Shown piece by piece: positions 1 through 8,683 of a DNA stretch of 64,000 nucleotides (position 1 is its first letter; each line of letters begins with the position of its first letter). This stretch comes from Escherichia coli O127:H6 str. E2348/69 (GTDB lineage: Bacteria > Pseudomonadota > Gammaproteobacteria > Enterobacterales > Enterobacteriaceae), in assembly GCF_000026545.1 (NCBI RefSeq), contig NC_011601.1; one strand, 5' to 3'. Under the pieces are notes generated by a model. That model was not told where the DNA came from, made no database searches, and was given only the letters and a program-made list of their open reading frames with translations. The translations under genes and the position numbers were made by a program.

Positions 1-2
1 CA

Positions 3-182
3 GAAGAAAAAAGAATCAAGGACGAAGAAGAGCGTAGAGCAAAGGATAAAGCTCACCGGAAAGAAGTAAATAACAAAATACTTGCTGACCTTATCAAGGT
101 TGGTGCATCAGAAGATGTTGCTAAAAATATCATAACAGCCATCGCAAAAGGCGAAGTATTCGCAACAAAAATAACCTACTAA
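3..182 (+). CDS. Hypothetical phage protein, C-terminal fragment (5' end outside window)
   Basis: Open frame from window edge to TAA at 180..182; lysine/glutamate-rich translation. Confidence 0.3.
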   Translation, partial: EEKRIKDEEERRAKDKAHRKEVNNKILADLIKVGASEDVAKNIITAIAKGEVFATKITY

Positions 183-205
183 TAAACCAACATAAGGAAC
201 CACCC

Positions 206-337
206 ATGATTTACGCAATCGCGGGAGGCGCTCGCATGGGTGCCTTCCAACTAAATGAATCTTTACTTGAACGAATCACCCGTAAATTACGTGACGGATG
301 GAAAAGAGTTGAGGTCTTATTATGCGCAATGAAATAG
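206..337 (+). CDS. Small hypothetical phage protein (43 aa)
   Basis: ATG at 206 preceded by AAGGA; overlaps next ORF. Confidence 0.3.
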   Translation: MIYAIAGGARMGAFQLNESLLERITRKLRDGWKRVEVLLCAMK

Positions 338-474
338 CCATCAATCACCAGATGCTTCGTGCTGCACAGAACAAAGCAGTAATAGCCAGATTTATTGGTG
401 ATTCAAAAATGTGGCTTGAAGCAAATAAAGCGATGAAATCAGCTATCAACCTTCCGTGGTATCGCAGGAAATGA
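322..474 (+). CDS. Small hypothetical phage protein (50 aa)
   Basis: ATG 322 overlaps the end of the previous ORF; stop overlaps the next start (ATGA at 471..474). Confidence 0.3.
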   Translation: MRNEIAINHQMLRAAQNKAVIARFIGDSKMWLEANKAMKSAINLPWYRRK

Positions 475-629
475 GTTTTACAGATAACTGGTCAGACGAA
501 GAATTCATTCGTCAGATGAAAGAATTAATCGGTAACGAAGGAGATATTCATGTCACTTGCAACCACAGTGAAGGAGAGCAAGTTACAGAGACGCATGTAC
601 ACGCAGAAAGCTCTCTGGTATCGCCATAA
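471..629 (+). CDS. Small hypothetical phage protein (52 aa)
   Basis: ATG 471 preceded by AGGAA; part of a coupled small-ORF stack. Confidence 0.3.
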   Translation: MSFTDNWSDEEFIRQMKELIGNEGDIHVTCNHSEGEQVTETHVHAESSLVSP

Positions 630-728
630 TGGTGACCGCGAAGGAATGCGGGTATGCCTTAATTTGTCCCGAGTCGAAGTATTAAATCAGCGTTATTTCC
701 TTGGGCCGTGTCCATTCTGAGGTGAATT

Positions 729-1436
729 ATGGATTTGAACAAATTCGATGAGCCATTCAGCCCTGAAGATATAGAATGGAGAATACAGCAAAGCGGTAAA
801 ACACGCGATGGCAAGGTGTGGGCTATGGTGCTGGCTTATGTCACGAACAGGGCAATCATGAAACGCCTTGACGATGTTTGCGGCAAAGCAGGATGGCGCA
901 ATGAATACCGAGATATTCCCAACAACGGAGGCGTTGAATGCGGCATATCAATCAGGATTGATTCCGAATGGGTAACCAAATGGGATGCTGCTGAAAACAC
1001 GCAGGTAGAAGCCGTAAAAGGTGGTCGTTCCGGTGCAATGAAGCGCGCTGCCGTTCAGTGGGGAATCGGTCGGTATCTGTATAACCTTGAGGAAGGTTTC
1101 GCACAAACATCTCTCGATAAAAAGCAGGGATGGCACAGGGCAAAACTCAAGGATGGAACAGGATTTTACTGGCTCCCTCCATCGCTGCCGGGATGGGCAA
1201 TCCCAGCATCAGATAACAAACCATCACCAGAAAATACCAACCAGACATCTCCATCGGTTGACTGCGAACAAATCCTGAAAGACTTCAGCGATTATGCATC
1301 AACAGAAACTGACAAGAAAAAACTCATCGAGCGTTATCAGCGTGACTGGCAATTAATGGCTGGCAACGAGGAGGCACAGGCTAAATGCGTTCAGGTAATG
1401 AACATCAGAGTTAACGAACTAAAACAGGCGGCATAA
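729..1436 (+). CDS. Rad52/Sak-like single-strand annealing protein (putative)
   Basis: 235 aa; motif AMKRAAVQWGIGRYLY resembles the Rad52 N-domain signature; sits upstream of ssb in a phage recombination module; GAGG RBS. Confidence 0.5.
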   Translation: MDLNKFDEPFSPEDIEWRIQQSGKTRDGKVWAMVLAYVTNRAIMKRLDDVCGKAGWRNEYRDIPNNGGVECGISIRIDSEWVTKWDAAENTQVEAVKGGRSGAMKRAAVQWGIGRYLYNLEEGFAQTSLDKKQGWHRAKLKDGTGFYWLPPSLPGWAIPASDNKPSPENTNQTSPSVDCEQILKDFSDYASTETDKKKLIERYQRDWQLMAGNEEAQAKCVQVMNIRVNELKQAA

Positions 1437-1904
1437 ATGTCTCACTTGGACGGAATTATTAAAAGATTCGAGTCCAGCTACAAAGTTAATGAAACAACAG
1501 GTTGCTGGGAGTCTACCTATTCAAAAAACAAAGGAGGATACACAAAATTTGTAGCCTTTGGCGTAACAATGCTTTCTCATCGGGTTGCTTTTGAGCTTTA
1601 TCACTCCCCCATTCCATCTGGGAAGATGGTTTGCCACAAATGCGATAACCAATGCTGCGTTAATCCTGAACATCTCTTTTTAGGTAGCGCGCAAGAAAAC
1701 ATGGACGACAAGATAGCAAAAGGAAGGCATCGTGGAGCCAAGAAAGGTCATGCTCATCATGGTGCAAAATTAACAGAGTGGCAGGTTATAGAAATTAGGA
1801 AAAGACTCTCTGAAAAAGAGAGTCAGTACAAGATAGCAAAAGACATGGGTGTATCTCAATCAATTATAAGCAACATAAAAACTGGCAAGAGGTGGAGCAA
1901 ATGA
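1437..1904 (+). CDS. HNH endonuclease with C-terminal HTH
   Basis: Motif [23 protein letters not shown] (HNH_3-type); start abuts the stop of the upstream gene; stop overlaps ssb start. Confidence 0.7.
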
Positions 1905-2407
1905 GTTCTCGCGGGATAAATAAGGTGATTATCCTTGGTCGGGTAGGACAAGACCCGGAAGTTCGATACTCACCATCAGGAACAGCGTTCGCTAACCTGA
2001 CAATAGCCACGTCAGAACAATGGCGAGATAAAAATACTGGCGAGCAAAAGGAATTGACTGAATGGCATCGTGTTGCTGTATCCGGGAAACTGGCTGAGGT
2101 CGTGGGGCAGTATGTGAAAAAAGGTGATCAGATTTATTTCGAGGGAATGCTGAGAACCAGAAAGTGGAAAGACCAGTCAGGGCAAGACCGTTACACAACC
2201 GAGGTTCATGTCGGAATTAATGGCGTGATGCAAATGCTTGGCGGCATTGGCGACAGCAAACAACAAGCAGCCAGCAGGCAATCACAGAAGCCACAGCAGC
2301 AATCATCACCAGCACAACACAACGAACCTCCGATGGATTTTGACGACGATATACCCTTTGCACCAGTAACTCTCCCCTTCCCTCGTCACGCTATTCACGC
2401 AATTTAA
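1901..2407 (+). CDS. ssb: Single-stranded DNA-binding protein (prophage SSB) with 15-residue extension after DDDIPF
   Basis: N-terminus [25 protein letters not shown]-fold core, Q/P-rich linker and DFDDDIPF motif; ATG 1901 with AGGTGGAG RBS (the ORF track starts at GTG 1892). Confidence 0.85.
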
Positions 2408-2420
2408 TCAGGAGAAAATC

Positions 2421-2714
2421 ATGCCAGCGCCTCTGTATGGTGCGGATGACCCGCGCCGCTGTTCCGGCAATTCCGTATCGGAGGTGCTGGATAAATTCAG
2501 AAAAAACTACGATCGAATAATGTCTCTACCGCAGGAAACGAAAGAGGAAAAGGAATTTCGCCACTGTATATGGCTTGCAGAGAAAGAAGAACGCGAGCGA
2601 ATTTACCAGACATCAATCCGACCATTCCGCAAAGCCACATATACCCACTTCCCTGAAATTGACCCGCGCCTGCGTAATTACCGCTCACGTTATGGCGCTA
2701 TCAGTAATGACTGA
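2421..2714 (+). CDS. Hypothetical phage protein (97 aa)
   Basis: ORF with AGGAGA RBS directly after ssb. Confidence 0.45.
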
Positions 2715-2724
2715 GGAATTTACC

Positions 2725-2892
2725 ATGAGAGGACTTGCATACAATCCCGGCATTCTTCCGGCAGAAATGATTATTCGCCAACGCGTAAAGCCAATGCCAT
2801 CGAGAGAGGAATTGCTTAAGAGAAATTCTTCTCCGTCAGTGAATCAAAACAAATATCTGAATGCGATGTGGCGCAAAGGAGGCAACCAGTGA
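2725..2892 (+). CDS. Small hypothetical phage protein (55 aa)
   Basis: ATG 2725 with GAGGAA RBS; the track's longer 2575 start overlaps the previous gene. Confidence 0.35.
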
Positions 2893-3158
2893 GTGAGTCA
2901 AAATGCCAAATTAATGGCAACAAGATAGAACCGTGCGCGGCGTTGGCAAAATCTCTCGAATATGGAAATCCAACATTCAAGAGTAAAGGCATATTTATCC
3001 CGGAGCGTGTGAACATAAACACCGGCGAGTCATGCATAGATATTGCTCAAATTCACTCGGGGAAATATATCGGTCGTGGCGTTGCAATGTGCTTTTGCCC
3101 GTTCTGTGGTGAAAGTTTGAAAACGTGGGAAGCGGAGGCAGCCAGTGAGCAAAATTGA
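2890..3158 (+). CDS. Hypothetical phage protein with C-terminal CPFC motif
   Basis: GTG 2890 preceded by AGGAGG; start overlaps the upstream stop. Confidence 0.4.
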
Positions 3159-3783
3159 CCATCAGGCACTGCGTGAGGCGGCAGAGCAGGCAATGCATGA
3201 CGACTGGGGATTTGACGCGGACCTTTTCCATGAGCTGGTAACACCATCGATTGTGCTGGAACTGCTGGATGAACAGGAAAGAAACCAGCAATACATCAAA
3301 CGCCGCGACCAGGAGAACGAGGAGATTGCGCTTACGGTTGGGAAGCTGCGTGTTGAGCTTGAAGCAGCAGAGAACAACCTTATTGATAGTGAATGCCATG
3401 TTGCTGAACTGGAAGAAGCTCTACGCGATAAGCAGGCGTTACTTGAAGCCTCAGAAAAGCGCAACGCAAAATTACAAAGCGAGAATGCATACATCCGCAA
3501 CCGGTACAAAGAACTGGACCTATTAATCGGGAAAAACATTCTGGTCATGCAGGCTGCCATTATCGAATGGCAGGCAACTGGCGACGCTAAGAGCGGACTA
3601 GCATGGATTTATAACACACTGTTTGGCCCTGGCGAATTACCGGACGAATCTGAGAAAGATGCTCAGGCCTACTTTAATCGCAAATATGCACCGATTGACG
3701 AAAAGCTTATGGCGCTTCACAAGTGGTTTTGGGAACAAAGTGAAGCCGAGCGCGCCGCTGGCATTCGCATCAAAGGAGAGTGA
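3145..3783 (+). CDS. Coiled-coil phage protein (ea-region type)
   Basis: 212 aa; acidic, heptad-rich central segment; position in the ea region. Confidence 0.5.
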   Translation: MSKIDHQALREAAEQAMHDDWGFDADLFHELVTPSIVLELLDEQERNQQYIKRRDQENEEIALTVGKLRVELEAAENNLIDSECHVAELEEALRDKQALLEASEKRNAKLQSENAYIRNRYKELDLLIGKNILVMQAAIIEWQATGDAKSGLAWIYNTLFGPGELPDESEKDAQAYFNRKYAPIDEKLMALHKWFWEQSEAERAAGIRIKGE

Positions 3784-3784
3784 G

Positions 3785-3976
3785 ATGAACGGACAAATCT
3801 CAATTGTTCGACCGGGAGCATGTGACGATTGCGAGATACGAATGATTATTCGTCTGGCGAGGGGGAAAACAATAACTGCTCTCATTACTCCAGAAAATCT
3901 CGCATTAGCATTAACCGGAAAGTCAGACCTGCCAGTAGAGCTAAAGCTGCGAAATGTTGAGATTAAGGTGAAATAG
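3785..3976 (+). CDS. Small hypothetical phage protein (63 aa)
   Basis: ATG 3785 with GGAGAG RBS immediately after the upstream stop. Confidence 0.4.
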   Translation: MNGQISIVRPGACDDCEIRMIIRLARGKTITALITPENLALALTGKSDLPVELKLRNVEIKVK

Positions 3977-3978
3977 CT

Positions 3979-4374
3979 ATGACCACTATTACCAAAGAGC
4001 GACTGCTGACAATCAAGCAGTGGCGCGAAACATACGGACCGGGTAGCAACGTTGTACTGCCAGCAGAAGAAGCGGAAGAACTGGCACGAATTGCTCTGGC
4101 ATCGCTGGAAGTCGAGCCGATAGGTTTCCGTTGCAGGCGCAATGATAACCTTGGTGATTGGAGTTACGTATATCATCGAGAGCCAGATGATTTTGAGCGC
4201 AAACATTTAGTGATAGAGGGCATTTACGCCGCCCCTCCAGCGCAAGTAGTACCGAAAGAAAAACCAATGCCTAATCCTCTTAGCATGTACGCGGTTGATG
4301 CTGTTGCCGCTATTGCAGAGGTGAGAGGCTGGAACGCCTGCCGTGCCGCTATGCTTCAGGGGAAAGGAGACTGA
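3979..4374 (+). CDS. Hypothetical phage protein sharing an N-terminal module with the 4584..5216 gene
   Basis: 131 aa; MTTIT start and ELARIALASLEVEP block shared with the downstream paralogue. Confidence 0.5.
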   Translation: MTTITKERLLTIKQWRETYGPGSNVVLPAEEAEELARIALASLEVEPIGFRCRRNDNLGDWSYVYHREPDDFERKHLVIEGIYAAPPAQVVPKEKPMPNPLSMYAVDAVAAIAEVRGWNACRAAMLQGKGD

Positions 4375-4375
4375 T

Positions 4376-4573
4376 ATGGATAAAAACACCACTGCTTACT
4401 GGAATCTGTCACTTGATACCGAATGCCCAAAATGCGGTCACAATTTCGATCTGCTTTGTGACGCTGATTTCTGGGAGTTTTCTGGAGCTAAACAGGCATG
4501 TGAAGAAATAAAAGGTTACGAAACATGCTGTCCAGAATGTAACCATGAATTTAAAACAGATTTCGTGTATTGA
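4376..4573 (+). CDS. Small zinc-ribbon protein (CPKC ... CPEC)
   Basis: 65 aa; two CxxC pairs; AGGAGA RBS before ATG 4376. Confidence 0.45.
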   Translation: MDKNTTAYWNLSLDTECPKCGHNFDLLCDADFWEFSGAKQACEEIKGYETCCPECNHEFKTDFVY

Positions 4574-4583
4574 GGCATAACAA

Positions 4584-5216
4584 ATGACCACTATTACCAG
4601 AGAACAGGCACAGAAAATTATTGAAGCAGCCGATGAGGTTATTAGTGCGCTTGCCGGAACTAACGAGGATGTTCACCCTGGTAGCGATAACATGCTACGC
4701 CTGTGGGATGACCTGAATGACCGTTACGCGCCCCCTGAAGTTGTGCGTGAGCTGGCACGAATTGCACTGGCATCACTGGAAGCAGAGCCTGTAAGCCAAA
4801 CTTACAACTTGCCAGAATTAATCGAAGGGATGGAAGTTTCCATTGATGTAAGCACTTGTGATGCTGATTTAGGTAATCGCTATTTCGGTACCGTCACCGA
4901 GGCGTTAGAACTTGATACAGCCAAGAATGGTTACATCCTCCTAGTTCAGGACGCAGAGCCAAACTTCGATGTAAATGGCAACTCTCCGGTAATTCCGGGC
5001 GGTTGGATAAGCTGTAGTGAGCGAATGCCGGATAGCAAAACAGCCGTTCTTGTTGCCAGGGAGTTTGACAGGAAAGGTGACTGGCGAATGAAATGGGCGA
5101 CTTACATCCCGGGGCATCCTGACGCTAATGATGGGTGGGTAATACCTGGTGCGTCGTGGATACCATCACACTGGATGCCGCTACCAGAACCGCCGCAGGA
5201 GGTTAACCATGGCTAA
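4584..5216 (+). CDS. Phage protein with DUF551-like C-terminal domain
   Basis: 210 aa; N-terminal module paralogous to 3979..4374; C-terminal W-rich segment (WISCSERMP ... WIPSHWMPLPEPP). Confidence 0.55.
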   Translation: MTTITREQAQKIIEAADEVISALAGTNEDVHPGSDNMLRLWDDLNDRYAPPEVVRELARIALASLEAEPVSQTYNLPELIEGMEVSIDVSTCDADLGNRYFGTVTEALELDTAKNGYILLVQDAEPNFDVNGNSPVIPGGWISCSERMPDSKTAVLVAREFDRKGDWRMKWATYIPGHPDANDGWVIPGASWIPSHWMPLPEPPQEVNHG

Positions 5217-5316
5217 CCTGCAACTTGCCGTCAAAGGTGAATAACAATCCTCGCACTCGCGGGGATTTCTTTTATCTGAACTCGCTACGGCGAGTTTTGT
5301 TTTATGGAGATGATAA

Positions 5317-5484
5317 ATGCACTTCCGAGTCACAGGTGAATGGAATGGAGAACCATTCAACAGAGTTATCGAAGCGGAGAACATCAACGACTGCTATGAC
5401 CACTGGATGCTGTGGGCGCAGATAGCACATGCAGACGTAACCAATATTCGAATTGAAGAACTGAAAGAACACCAAGCCGCCTGA
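5317..5484 (+). CDS. Small hypothetical phage protein (55 aa)
   Basis: ATG 5317 with GGAGA RBS; stop lies in the loop of a terminator hairpin. Confidence 0.35.
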   Translation: MHFRVTGEWNGEPFNRVIEAENINDCYDHWMLWAQIAHADVTNIRIEELKEHQAA

Positions 5485-5496
5485 TGGCGGTTTTTT
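5477..5496 (+). terminator. Rho-independent terminator upstream of torI
   Basis: CCGCC-TGAT-GGCGG hairpin followed by TTTTTT. Confidence 0.5.
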
Positions 5497-5541
5497 ATTA
5501 CCTGATTTGCAGGTTCGATTCCCTATTCGGAGATAGCACTC

Positions 5542-5742
5542 ATGCAACACGAATTACAGCCTGATTCACTGGTTGATTTGAAATTCATCATGGCCGATAC
5601 TGGCTTCGGTAAAACCTTCATCTATGACCGGATTAAGTCCGGCGACCTGCCAAAAGCCAAAGTTATCCACGGGCGAGCAAGATGGTTATATCGTGACCAT
5701 TGTGAATTCAAAAATAAGCTCTTAAGCCGCGCCAATGGGTAA
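5542..5742 (+). CDS. torI: Prophage excisionase / recombination directionality factor TorI
   Basis: 66 aa translation recognised as TorI (MQHELQPDSLVDLKFIMADTGFGKTFIYDRIKSGDLPKA...); lies next to the att core. Confidence 0.9.
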   Translation: MQHELQPDSLVDLKFIMADTGFGKTFIYDRIKSGDLPKAKVIHGRARWLYRDHCEFKNKLLSRANG

Positions 5743-5814
5743 AATAGCGGGTAAAATATTTCTCACATCTAAAAAACTCCATTCCAATCAATCCCCTGCC
5801 GCTTCAAGTAGATG

Positions 5815-5830
5815 TCTGCAGGGGACACCA
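5815..5830 (+). repeat. Prophage attR core (copy of the tRNA-Arg argW 3' end)
   Basis: TCTGCAGGGGACACCA matches the 3' end of argW; located 73 bp downstream of torI. Confidence 0.7.
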
Positions 5831-6269
5831 GATACCCTTCAAACGATATCTACCTTCACCCCGTAAAAGATAAGTTTGGCAGCACATTTGCCCTATCTAC
5901 TCATTTTTCCTGCAACAGGTTGAAATCTCAACACGGTCAGAAAACGCTGATGACTAAACAGCCCTGGGCCGGGCGATGTAACCATCACACACAATCCTGA
6001 TCGCGAAATATGGCGTGACTTGATACTTCACTCCACAATGCTTTCCTTGATGAATTCGCAGGCCCGTGATACACGGGACAGGTCGCTGAATTACGACAAT
6101 GCCCTGGAAATCAGCGAGCCGTGTATCCAGAGTACATTTGAGCGACTGTACCAGAACATGAATGAGGCGTTTGGATTAGGCGATTATTAGCAGGGCTAAG
6201 CATTTTGGTATTATTATTTTCCGGTTGAGGGATATAGAGCTATCGACAACAACCGGAAAAAGTTTACGT

Positions 6270-7517
6270 TTATATTGCTGAAGGTACTGGCGTTTCCATC
6301 ACTATTTGCTCACGTTTTTTACTCAGGAAGAAAATGCCAAATAGCAACATCAGGCAGACAATACCCGAAATTGCGAAAAAAACCGTCTGGTAGCCTGCGT
6401 GGTCAAAGAGTATCCCAGTCGGCGTTGAAAGCAGCACAATCCCCAACGAACTGGCAATTTGAAAACCAATCAGAAAGATCGTCGACGACAGGCGCTTATC
6501 AAAATTTGCCACGCTGTATTTGAAGACGGATATGACACAAAGTGGAACCTCAATGGCATGTAACAGCTTCACTAATGAAATAATCCAGGGGTTAACGAAT
6601 AGCGCGCAGGAAAGGATACGCAACGCCATAATCACAACACCGATAAGTAATGCATTTTTTGGCCCTACCCGATTCACAAAGAAAGGAATAATCGCCATGC
6701 ACAGCGCTTCGAGTACCACCTGGAATGAGTTGAGATAACCATACAGGCGCGTTCCTACATCGTGTGATTCGAATAAACCTGCATAAAAGACAGGAAAGAG
6801 TTGTTGATCAAAAATGTTATAGAAAGACCACGTCCCCACAATAAATATGACGAAAACCCAGAAGTTTCGATCCTTGAAAACTGCGATAAAATCCTCTTTT
6901 TTTACCCCTCCCGCATCCGCCGCTATGCACTGGTGATCCTTATCTTTAAAACGCATGTTGATCATCATAAATACAGCGCCAAATAGCGAGACCAACCAGA
7001 AGTTGATATGGGGACTGATACTAAAAAATATACCGGCAAAGAACGCGCCAATAGCATAGCCAAAAGATCCCCAGGCGCGCGCTGTTCCATATTCGAAATG
7101 AAAATTTCGCGCCATTTTTTCGGTGAAGCTGTCAAGCAAACCGCATCCCGCCAGATACCCCAGGCCAAAAAAGAGCGCCCCCAGAATTAGACCTGCAGAA
7201 AAATTGCTTTGCAGTAACGGTTCATAAACGTAAATCATAAACGGTCCGGTCAAGACCAGAATGAAACTCATACACCAGATGAGCGGTTTCTTCAGACCGA
7301 GTTTATCCTGAACGATGCCGTAGAACATCATAAATAGAATGCTGGTAAACTGGTTGACCGAATAAAGTGTACCTAATTCCGTCCCTGTTAATCCTAGATG
7401 TCCTTTCAGCCAAATAGCGTATAATGACCACCACAGCGACCAGGAAATAAAAAAGAGAAATGAGTAACTGGATGCAAAACGATAGTACGCATTTCTGAAT
7501 GGAATATTCAGTGCCAT
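6270..7517 (-). CDS. cscB: Sucrose:H+ symporter (oligosaccharide:H+ symporter family)
   Basis: 415 aa, 12-TMS-like; N-terminus MALNIPFRNAYYRFASSYSF recognised as CscB. Confidence 0.9.
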   Translation of the reverse strand: MALNIPFRNAYYRFASSYSFLFFISWSLWWSLYAIWLKGHLGLTGTELGTLYSVNQFTSILFMMFYGIVQDKLGLKKPLIWCMSFILVLTGPFMIYVYEPLLQSNFSAGLILGALFFGLGYLAGCGLLDSFTEKMARNFHFEYGTARAWGSFGYAIGAFFAGIFFSISPHINFWLVSLFGAVFMMINMRFKDKDHQCIAADAGGVKKEDFIAVFKDRNFWVFVIFIVGTWSFYNIFDQQLFPVFYAGLFESHDVGTRLYGYLNSFQVVLEALCMAIIPFFVNRVGPKNALLIGVVIMALRILSCALFVNPWIISLVKLLHAIEVPLCVISVFKYSVANFDKRLSSTIFLIGFQIASSLGIVLLSTPTGILFDHAGYQTVFFAISGIVCLMLLFGIFFLSKKREQIVMETPVPSAI

Positions 7518-7578
7518 AATTACCTGCCTGTCGTTAAAAAATTCATGTCCTATTTAGAGATAAGAGCGGCCTCGCCGT

Positions 7579-8502
7579 TTACTTCTCACTTTCCAGTTCT
7601 TGTCGACATGGCAGCGCTGTCATTGCCCCTTTCGCTGTTACTGCAAGCGCTCCGCAACGTTGAGCGAGATCGATAATTCGTCGCATTTCTCTCTCATCTG
7701 TAGATAACCCCGTAGAGGACAGACCTGTGAGTAACCCGGCAACGAACGCATCTCCCGCCCCCGTGCTATCGACACAATTCACAGACATTCCAGCAAAATG
7801 GTGAACTTGTCCTCGATAACAGACCACCACCCCTTCTGCACCTTTAGTCACCAACAGCATGGCGATCTCATACTCTTTTGCCAGGGCGCATATATCCCGA
7901 TCGTTCTGTGTTTTTCCACTGATAAGTCGCCATTCTTCTTCCGAGAGCTTGACGACATCCGCCAGTTGTAGCGCCTGCCGCAAACACAAGCGGAGCAAAT
8001 GCTCGTCTTGCCATAGATCTTCACGAATATTGGGATCGAAGCTGACAAAACCTCCGGCATGCCGGAGCGCCGTCATCGCAGTAAATGCGCTGGTACGCGA
8101 AGGCTCGGCAGACAACGCAATTGAACAGAGATGTAACCATTCGCCATGTCGCCAGCAGGGCAAGTCTGTCGTCTCTAAAAAAAGATCGGCACTGGGGCGG
8201 ACCATAAACGTAAATGAACGTTCTCCTTGATCGTTCAGATCGACAAGCACCGTGGATGTCCGGTGCCATTCATCTTGCTTCAGATACGTGATATCGACAC
8301 CCTCAGTTAGCAGCGTTCTTTGCATTAACGCACCAAAAGGATCATCACCGACCCGACCTATAAACCCACTTGTTCCGCCTAATCTGGCGATTCCCACCGC
8401 AACGTTAGCTGGCGCACCGCCAGGACAAGGCAGTAGCCGCCCGTCTGATTCTGGCAAGAGATCTACGACCGCATCCCCTAAAACCCACACTTTGGCTGAC
8501 AT
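7579..8502 (-). CDS. cscK: Fructokinase (PfkB family)
   Basis: 307 aa; GG motif and C-terminal DTxGAGD ribokinase-family signature; position in the csc cluster. Confidence 0.9.
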   Translation of the reverse strand: MSAKVWVLGDAVVDLLPESDGRLLPCPGGAPANVAVGIARLGGTSGFIGRVGDDPFGALMQRTLLTEGVDITYLKQDEWHRTSTVLVDLNDQGERSFTFMVRPSADLFLETTDLPCWRHGEWLHLCSIALSAEPSRTSAFTAMTALRHAGGFVSFDPNIREDLWQDEHLLRLCLRQALQLADVVKLSEEEWRLISGKTQNDRDICALAKEYEIAMLLVTKGAEGVVVCYRGQVHHFAGMSVNCVDSTGAGDAFVAGLLTGLSSTGLSTDEREMRRIIDLAQRCGALAVTAKGAMTALPCRQELESEK

Positions 8503-8607
8503 TTTTTTCCCTTAAATTCATCTGACTTACGCATAGTGATAAACCTCTTTTTCGCAAAATCGTCATGGATTTACTAAAACATGCATATTCGATCACAAAA
8601 CGTCATA

Positions 8608-8683
8608 GTTAACGTTAACATTTGTGATATTCATCGCATTTATGAAAGTAAGGGACTTTATTTTTATAAAAGTTAACGTTAAC
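8608..8683. promoter_or_regulatory. Divergent cscK/cscA control region: two GTTAACGTTAAC palindromes flanking a CRP-like site
   Basis: Perfect 12-bp palindrome at 8608..8619 and 8672..8683; TGTGA-N6-TCGCA at 8623..8638. Confidence 0.5.

Follow-up and report, generated by a model that had tools for sequence, protein, structure and literature searches.

In the window (the whole stretch of 64,000 nucleotides that was analysed), positions 5542-5830 are very probably the attR end of one lambdoid prophage, 43,314 bp long, that sits in the 3' end of argW and carries a KplE1/HK620-type recombination module. An attR junction of this kind, with torI and intS, is an ordinary, RefSeq-annotated part of a well-studied module and is already known. 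The main result is a confirmation of an annotated prophage boundary in a reference EPEC genome, and its import is small.

The genome comparison places positions 1-6300 at 100% identity in E. coli O127:H6 E2348/69 (NZ_LT827011.1), and two more assemblies of this strain match likewise. At least 80% of this segment is covered in only 3 of 5426 complete genomes, all of them E2348/69 assemblies. A 49.9-kb stretch of NZ_LT827011.1, here called L001, was taken for the analysis, with window position 1 at L001 42215. The features of the two prophage ends are as follows.

5474-5498, + strand: intrinsic-terminator-like hairpin and T-run (8-bp stem, 5 G-C pairs; consensus match)
5492-5830, + strand: conserved right arm of the IntS/TorI module, comprising torI, the attR P arm and the core (K-12 comparison)
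5507-5523, + strand: TTGCAGGTTCGATTCC(C), with 16 nt that match argW nt 46-61 exactly (T-stem 5' strand and T-loop)
5542-5742, + strand: torI, recombination directionality factor (RDF, excisionase), 66 aa (ORF list; RefSeq annotation torI)
5737-5757, + strand: two direct GGGTAAAAT repeats in the P arm, predicted IntS arm-type sites with a TAAA-containing motif (PMC2951348)
5816-5830, + strand: attR core CTGCAGGGGACACCA, duplicate of the argW 3' end
5831-6269, + strand: chromosomal flank on the B' side, contiguous with argW in 1415 genomes
L001 4656-4730, same strand as intS, outside the window: argW, tRNA-Arg(CCU)
L001 4738, 4758, 4801, 4811 and 4821: predicted TorI pentamers on attL (site definitions from PMC2951348)
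L001 4848-4890: four predicted TAAA-containing IntS arm-type repeats on attL (site definitions from PMC2951348)
L001 4892-6049, + strand, outside the window: intS (RefSeq annotation)

The right end closely follows its K-12 counterpart. TorI is identical to K-12 TorI at 66 of 66 residues, with a Pfam HTH_17 match that stays below threshold, and its gene lies directly inside attR, 73 nt from its stop codon to the 15-mer core, a distance equal to that in K-12. The segment 5492-5830 is 98.2% identical to K-12 torI-attR over 339 bp, and its P-arm GGGTAAAAT repeats are the same. This homology reaches the final base of the core, position 5830, and no further; 5830 is also the last base of the prophage, and the sequences are unrelated from 5831 onward. 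A sequence-only reading of this DNA had named a TorI excisionase gene at the attR side of a KplE1-type element, and both assignments are borne out. Nineteen cultured phage records, among them HK620, Sf6, HK633, Kapi1 and IME10, also have the torI-attR segment, at 96-99% identity, and 467 confirmed stretches in IMG/VR carry the module.

The core at 5816-5830 equals argW nt 61-75, the last 15 bases of the tRNA-Arg, so that CTGCAGGGGACACCA(T) is duplicated at argW and attR with 15 nt exact; argW itself reads ...GATTCCTGCAGGGGACACCA, and the tRNA end is ...GGTTCGATTCCTGCAGGGGACACCA. The same reading had claimed an identity to the argW 3' end 73 bp after torI. The 15 nt and the 73-nt gap hold, but the sixteenth base, a leading T at 5815, is outside the tRNA identity, because argW has C at the corresponding base. 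With this T included, the 16-mer TCTGCAGGGGACACCA begins 72 nt after the torI stop codon; it occurs once in the 64-kb window (5815-5830), which contains no second core copy. The published K-12 core is also 16 nt long (CTGCAGGGGACACCAT; PMC2951348). Its sixteenth base is T in K-12 and G at the E2348/69 attR, since the chromosomal flank here is unlike that of K-12. Every relative with a locatable core shares the TGCAGGGG core, and the layout of core and inverted repeat is common to all lineages examined.

An ORF of 43 aa (5735-5866) starts in the region of the torI stop codon and crosses the attR core into the chromosome, which makes its 3' part host sequence in the prophage state. In HK620 and Sf6 the corresponding ORF is hkaB/gene 17, whose annotation spans attP. 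A Pfam search with this ORF gave no match, and it is probably not a real gene.

The sequence-only reading had placed the integrase arm outside the window and looked for argW and the integrase upstream, with a matching core repeat or integrase within about 10-50 kb. All three were located in that range: argW and intS lie about 37.5 kb ahead of window position 1, and the left core copy begins 37,499 nt ahead of the window. The core copies start at L001 4716 and 48030, a spacing of 43,314 bp. No further copy with up to 2 mismatches exists in the 49.9-kb region, which contains one integrase gene and two cores, and no IntS-like coding sequence was found in the window itself (tblastn, best E = 2.1). 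The intS gene starts 161 nt past argW and is transcribed away from the tRNA. Its product is identical to K-12 IntS at 383 of 384 residues and has the Arm-DNA-bind_3, Phage_int_M and Phage_integrase domains. The attL sequences of E2348/69 and K-12 are 99% identical, with the intS promoter and all five predicted TorI pentamers intact (GTTCG, GTCCG, GTTCG, GTTCG and GATCG, in that order). Pentamers and arm sites are present in the sequence of attL, as are arm sites in that of attR.

The boundary was located precisely by comparison with unoccupied sites. A chimeric query, composed of the 300 bp ending at the argW CCA and window positions 5831-6130, was aligned with complete E. coli genomes. In 1415 of 5426 genomes it aligns without a break, at 98.7-99.8% identity; strain 536 is an example of an unoccupied argW site with the 5831 flank. 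Since the chimera is unbroken in these genomes, the prophage was inserted precisely: compared with an unoccupied attB it adds exactly 43,314 bp, 15 nt of the target are duplicated, and the true boundary falls between 5830 and 5831.

Two other explanations for the junction can be weighed against these results. The 15-16 nt match to argW is short, and ARAGORN called no tRNA-Arg in the window, as might be expected if the match had arisen by chance, or from an unrelated pseudo-tRNA fragment, and played no part in recombination. However, TCTGCAGGGGACACCA yields a mean of only 0.01 matches per shuffle over 100 shuffles with up to 2 mismatches allowed. The same 73-nt distance after torI is found in K-12, HK620 and Sf6, with the attP core annotated at this place in HK620 and Sf6, and homology to both K-12 and the empty site breaks exactly at the core edge. 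The empty-site comparison refutes a chance match, which retains practically no probability.

The other explanation takes torI and the core as the lone relic of an older KplE1-like element, with the 43 kb to the left belonging to a different prophage in a tandem or composite array. It can draw on the degraded genes beside intS, on the mosaic nature of lambdoid prophages and on the presence of this exact cargo combination in only 3 genomes. Yet the 49.9-kb region has only one integrase and two core copies, both ends are of the same module type, the gene order is that of a single genome, and the whole 43,314 bp is missing as a unit in the empty-site genomes. A relic or tandem array is largely refuted on these grounds and is very improbable, and a single prophage bounded by argW and position 5830 is the reading retained here.

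The cargo next to attR is the right-hand (early-left, PL-direction) part of this prophage and occupies positions 1-5491, in which no homology to K-12 CPS-53 was found. Its genes, taken from the ORF list, Pfam and RefSeq, are these.

206-337, + strand: cIII
322-474, + strand: kil
729-1436, + strand: Rad52-like
1437-1904, + strand: HNH endonuclease
1892-2407, + strand: SSB
2421-2714, + strand: Abc2 anti-RecBCD
3145-3783, + strand: Ea22-like
4584-5216, + strand: DUF551
5317-5484, + strand: 55-aa ORF

The annotation between the two ends describes one lambdoid genome with a single gene order. From the left, genes for tail fibre assembly, baseplate, tape measure, sheath/tube-type proteins, head, portal and terminase are followed by a minus-strand series of lysis genes, Q, nin, replication genes, cII and cro. 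The plus strand then has a cI-like repressor of the LexA family (annotated 'LexA family protein') and, after it, the PL genes as far as torI. The element has cI/cro/cII, O/P-like replication, Q, holin/endolysin, terminase, portal, sheath/tube and baseplate genes. The suggestion in the sequence-only reading that a cargo unlike that of K-12 CPS-53 is carried on the same integration module proved correct: the cargo is a lambdoid genome, its structural genes are of myovirus type, and the only DNA that it shares with CPS-53 between the recombination arms is a 69-bp tail-fibre fragment (BLAST).

Several details of the cargo are worth recording. The HNH gene (HNH_3 with an HTH tail) lies between the Rad52-like and SSB genes; it begins directly at the stop codon of the Rad52-like gene, and the SSB ORF opens within its last codons. 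This placement resembles a homing-endonuclease insertion in a recombination module. Genes for tRNA-Thr(TGT) and tRNA-Asn(GTT) occur at L001 30201-30356, between the Q/HNH region and the lysis genes. At the left end, the tail-fibre gene beside intS is annotated as truncated with its C-terminus missing, and an HTH gene fragment (pseudogene) lies between intS and the tail genes (both within L001 6280-7864). No O-antigen-modifying genes follow intS, unlike in Sf6 and K-12. Because the tail-fibre gene is truncated, the prophage is possibly defective for infection; it may be excision-proficient yet non-infectious, and adsorption may be the defective step.

The last gene of the PL-direction string is torI itself, which stands behind terminator-like hairpins. 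The hairpin at 5474-5498 is directly upstream of the conserved module. Three such hairpins with T-runs occur in the 300 bp before torI (5246-5305 and 5474-5498), and a count on both strands gave 5 terminator-like sites versus 1.0 expected from shuffles. The position of torI behind these hairpins implies that its expression may depend on read-through. Rho is reportedly involved in the control of torI, as Menouni is said to have described in 2013. The torI promoter, PtorI, was described as uncharacterised in 2010 (PMC2951348).

The chromosome to the right of attR begins with a DUF4942 gene fragment (5984-6190, E = 3.6e-10) within the B' flank, and genes for sucrose utilisation (csc) follow.

6270-7517: MFS transporter (csc)
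7579-8502: fructokinase (csc)
8709-10151: sucrose-6-phosphate hydrolase (csc)
10159-11247: 362-aa ORF of the sucrose-utilisation group

The E2348/69 region 5831-11384 replaces dsdC and most of dsdX of K-12, whose homology returns at 11385, and it resembles what an older island at argW would leave behind.

The recombination mechanism worked out in K-12 and HK620 can be carried over to E2348/69 because the module is near-identical. The tyrosine recombinase IntS recognises both arm-type and core-type sites. Excision requires TorI, which binds GTTCG-type pentamers on attL, and IHF gives assistance on attR, while the intS promoter within attL is repressed by both IntS and TorI (PMC2951348). The circular phage has the order torI - attP - intS, so that on integration intS comes to lie at attL and torI at attR. 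By analogy with these systems, IntS of E2348/69 would bind its arm-type GGGTAAAA sites and the core, and TorI would direct the reaction towards excision. Strand exchange is predicted from the alignment of lineages to take place across a 7-bp overlap, TGCAGGG, flanked by an imperfect inverted repeat (GATGTC / GACACC) such as surrounds the overlap in other tyrosine-integrase cores. Across lineages, the left flank reads G[AG][TC]GT[CAT] and the right flank GACACCA. Recombination of attL with attR would restore argW joined to GATACC... and release a 43.3-kb circle. The predicted attB junction after excision is ...GGGGACACCA joined to GATACCC, and the predicted attP junction is ...GATGTCTGCAGGGGACACCA joined to TTTATCAG. 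The analysis thereby supplies exact coordinates for excision (attB as argW...CACCA joined to GATACC, and a circle of 43,314 bp).

A conserved tRNA-derived motif before torI may be a new observation. The argW copy TTGCAGGTTCGATTCC at 5507-5522 is located 19 nt ahead of the torI ATG in the block shared with K-12, and its 11-nt portion GTTCGATTCCC (5513-5523) closely precedes the torI ribosome-binding site. This GTTCGATTCCC also stands ahead of the RDF gene in distant xis-attP-int modules, with GGAG 3-6 nt further on. It is kept in Salmonella phage Emek and Erwinia phage phiEt88, whose RDFs are 49% and 36% identical to TorI, and it precedes the RDF gene in many IMG/VR prophages. In Erwinia phage Midgardsormr38 (RDF 88% identical), it is present as two tandem copies. 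The tandem duplicate CAGGTTCGATTCCCGTCAGGTTCGATTCCC before this RDF gene spans positions 1955-1985 of the Midgardsormr38 locus (L005) and is also seen in loci L162 and L165. Some lineages have no motif, and their terminator adjoins the ribosome-binding site. The TorI pentamer GTTCG forms part of the motif, which corresponds to the attB sequence directly left of the crossover region. A full-text literature search returned no relevant description of the motif together with an excisionase or integrase.

One account, somewhat short of an even chance, takes GTTCGATTCCC to be a neutral fossil, left by an attP block that was once tRNA-identical over a greater length, or the scar of a mosaic joint, without present function. 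The exact copy of argW nt 46-61 stands at the left edge of the conserved module as such a fossil would, several lineages do without it, and an RNA structure is unsupported. In addition, the published attR substrate for excision in vitro, 135 bp in length, begins inside the torI 3' end and excludes the motif (PMC3509656). A fossil is harder to reconcile with retention of the motif next to RDFs that are only 36-49% identical to TorI, where the 5' flanks are unrelated among the lineages. In 1.17 Mb of fetched loci, 132 of the 136 occurrences of GTTCGATTCC fall at the one pre-RDF position and strand. Within the E. coli lineage, 2 of 17 motif sites vary versus 19 of 73 in the P arm (a small sample of 30 loci and 28 haplotypes), which makes the motif about as invariant as coding sequence. 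It is conceivable, though doubtful, that GTTCGATTCCC, which stands 3-6 nt ahead of the RDF ribosome-binding site in many argW-targeting xis-attP-int modules, is a functional control element for RDF expression. It could then serve as an attB-like (B-type) half-site for integrase binding, or as an operator that includes the TorI pentamer. If so, either arrangement would couple RDF output to the recombination proteins. The motif is the only part of the junction that may raise a new question, and the silencing and switching on of torI is the least characterised step.

Other candidate explanations for the motif were set aside or weakened. A 'split tRNA', with torI inserted in a 30-nt tRNA block that left argW nt 46-61 upstream and 61-75 downstream of the gene, was dropped as the simplest description because the sequence left of the core in all lineages is a diverged T-loop copy, which implies two T-arm-like copies rather than one that was split. 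For an RNA element, the one structure that RNAalifold predicted from 16 diverse 5' regions was a 4-bp UUCC/GGAG hairpin (-1.55 kcal/mol); the alignment has no compensatory changes, and full T-arm hairpins are limited to a few lineages. The HK620 record labels this spot a predicted cII-activated integration promoter (PI), but its TTGC repeats are not conserved elsewhere and read TTAC in E2348/69 and K-12. A sigma-70 scan found no promoter at the spot. A pure TorI operator is weakened by phiEt88, which keeps the motif and has P' arm repeats of GATGTAAC/GCGTTAC, not GTTCG, at the presumed RDF sites. The sole Rfam match, to STnc130 on the minus strand (24.8 bits against a threshold of 55 bits), was not reproduced in 8 related loci and was attributed to chance.

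Among the closest known systems is the defective prophage KplE1 (CPS-53) of K-12. It has the same integration site, 15 of the 16 published core bases, TorI and IntS proteins that are 100% and 99.7% identical to those of E2348/69, and the same layout with int at the left and the RDF gene at the right. It differs in retaining only 10.2 kb of remnant genes (yfdG-yfdT) compared with the 43.3-kb lambdoid genome of E2348/69, which has repressor, replication, lysis and structural genes. The right flanks of attR also differ, with dsdC-dsdX in K-12 and the DUF4942 fragment and csc genes in E2348/69.

The P22-like podoviruses HK620, Sf6, HK633, Kapi1 and IME10 (Lederbergvirus) share the module at 96-99% identity across torI-attP-int (350 bp tested), with 100% identical TorI proteins. 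Integration of Kapi1 at argW has been demonstrated by experiment (PMC8787464). These phages have genomes of about 38-46 kb, and several carry O-antigen-modifying genes after int, whereas in E2348/69 the tail and baseplate genes are of myovirus type and intS is followed by no conversion genes. Its structural region, from terminase to baseplate, instead resembles those of vB_EcoM-611R5 (95% identical over 75% of 24 kb) and Salmonella phage SEN34 (83% identical over 70% of 24 kb). Neither phage is among the 19 records with the torI-attR module, which are mostly P22-like podoviruses, and both must therefore use a different integration module.

Phage lambda likewise combines a tyrosine integrase that has an arm-binding domain with a small winged-helix-type RDF, arm-type and core-type sites, and assistance by IHF (PMC2951348). 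Its gene order is attP-int-xis, and int and xis are co-transcribed from PL, whereas here attP separates the RDF gene from int. The two genes are therefore found at opposite ends of the prophage, and intS is transcribed from an autoregulated promoter of its own within attL (PMC2951348). The module has been described as 'highly conserved' in CUS-3, HK620, Sf6 and other argW prophages, and the observation that it bears varied cargo is correct here and already published (PMC2951348, PMC3509656). The E2348/69 prophage illustrates this published point, that one argW recombination module is carried on very different phage genomes, with a myovirus-type lambdoid genome beyond the P22-like podoviruses.
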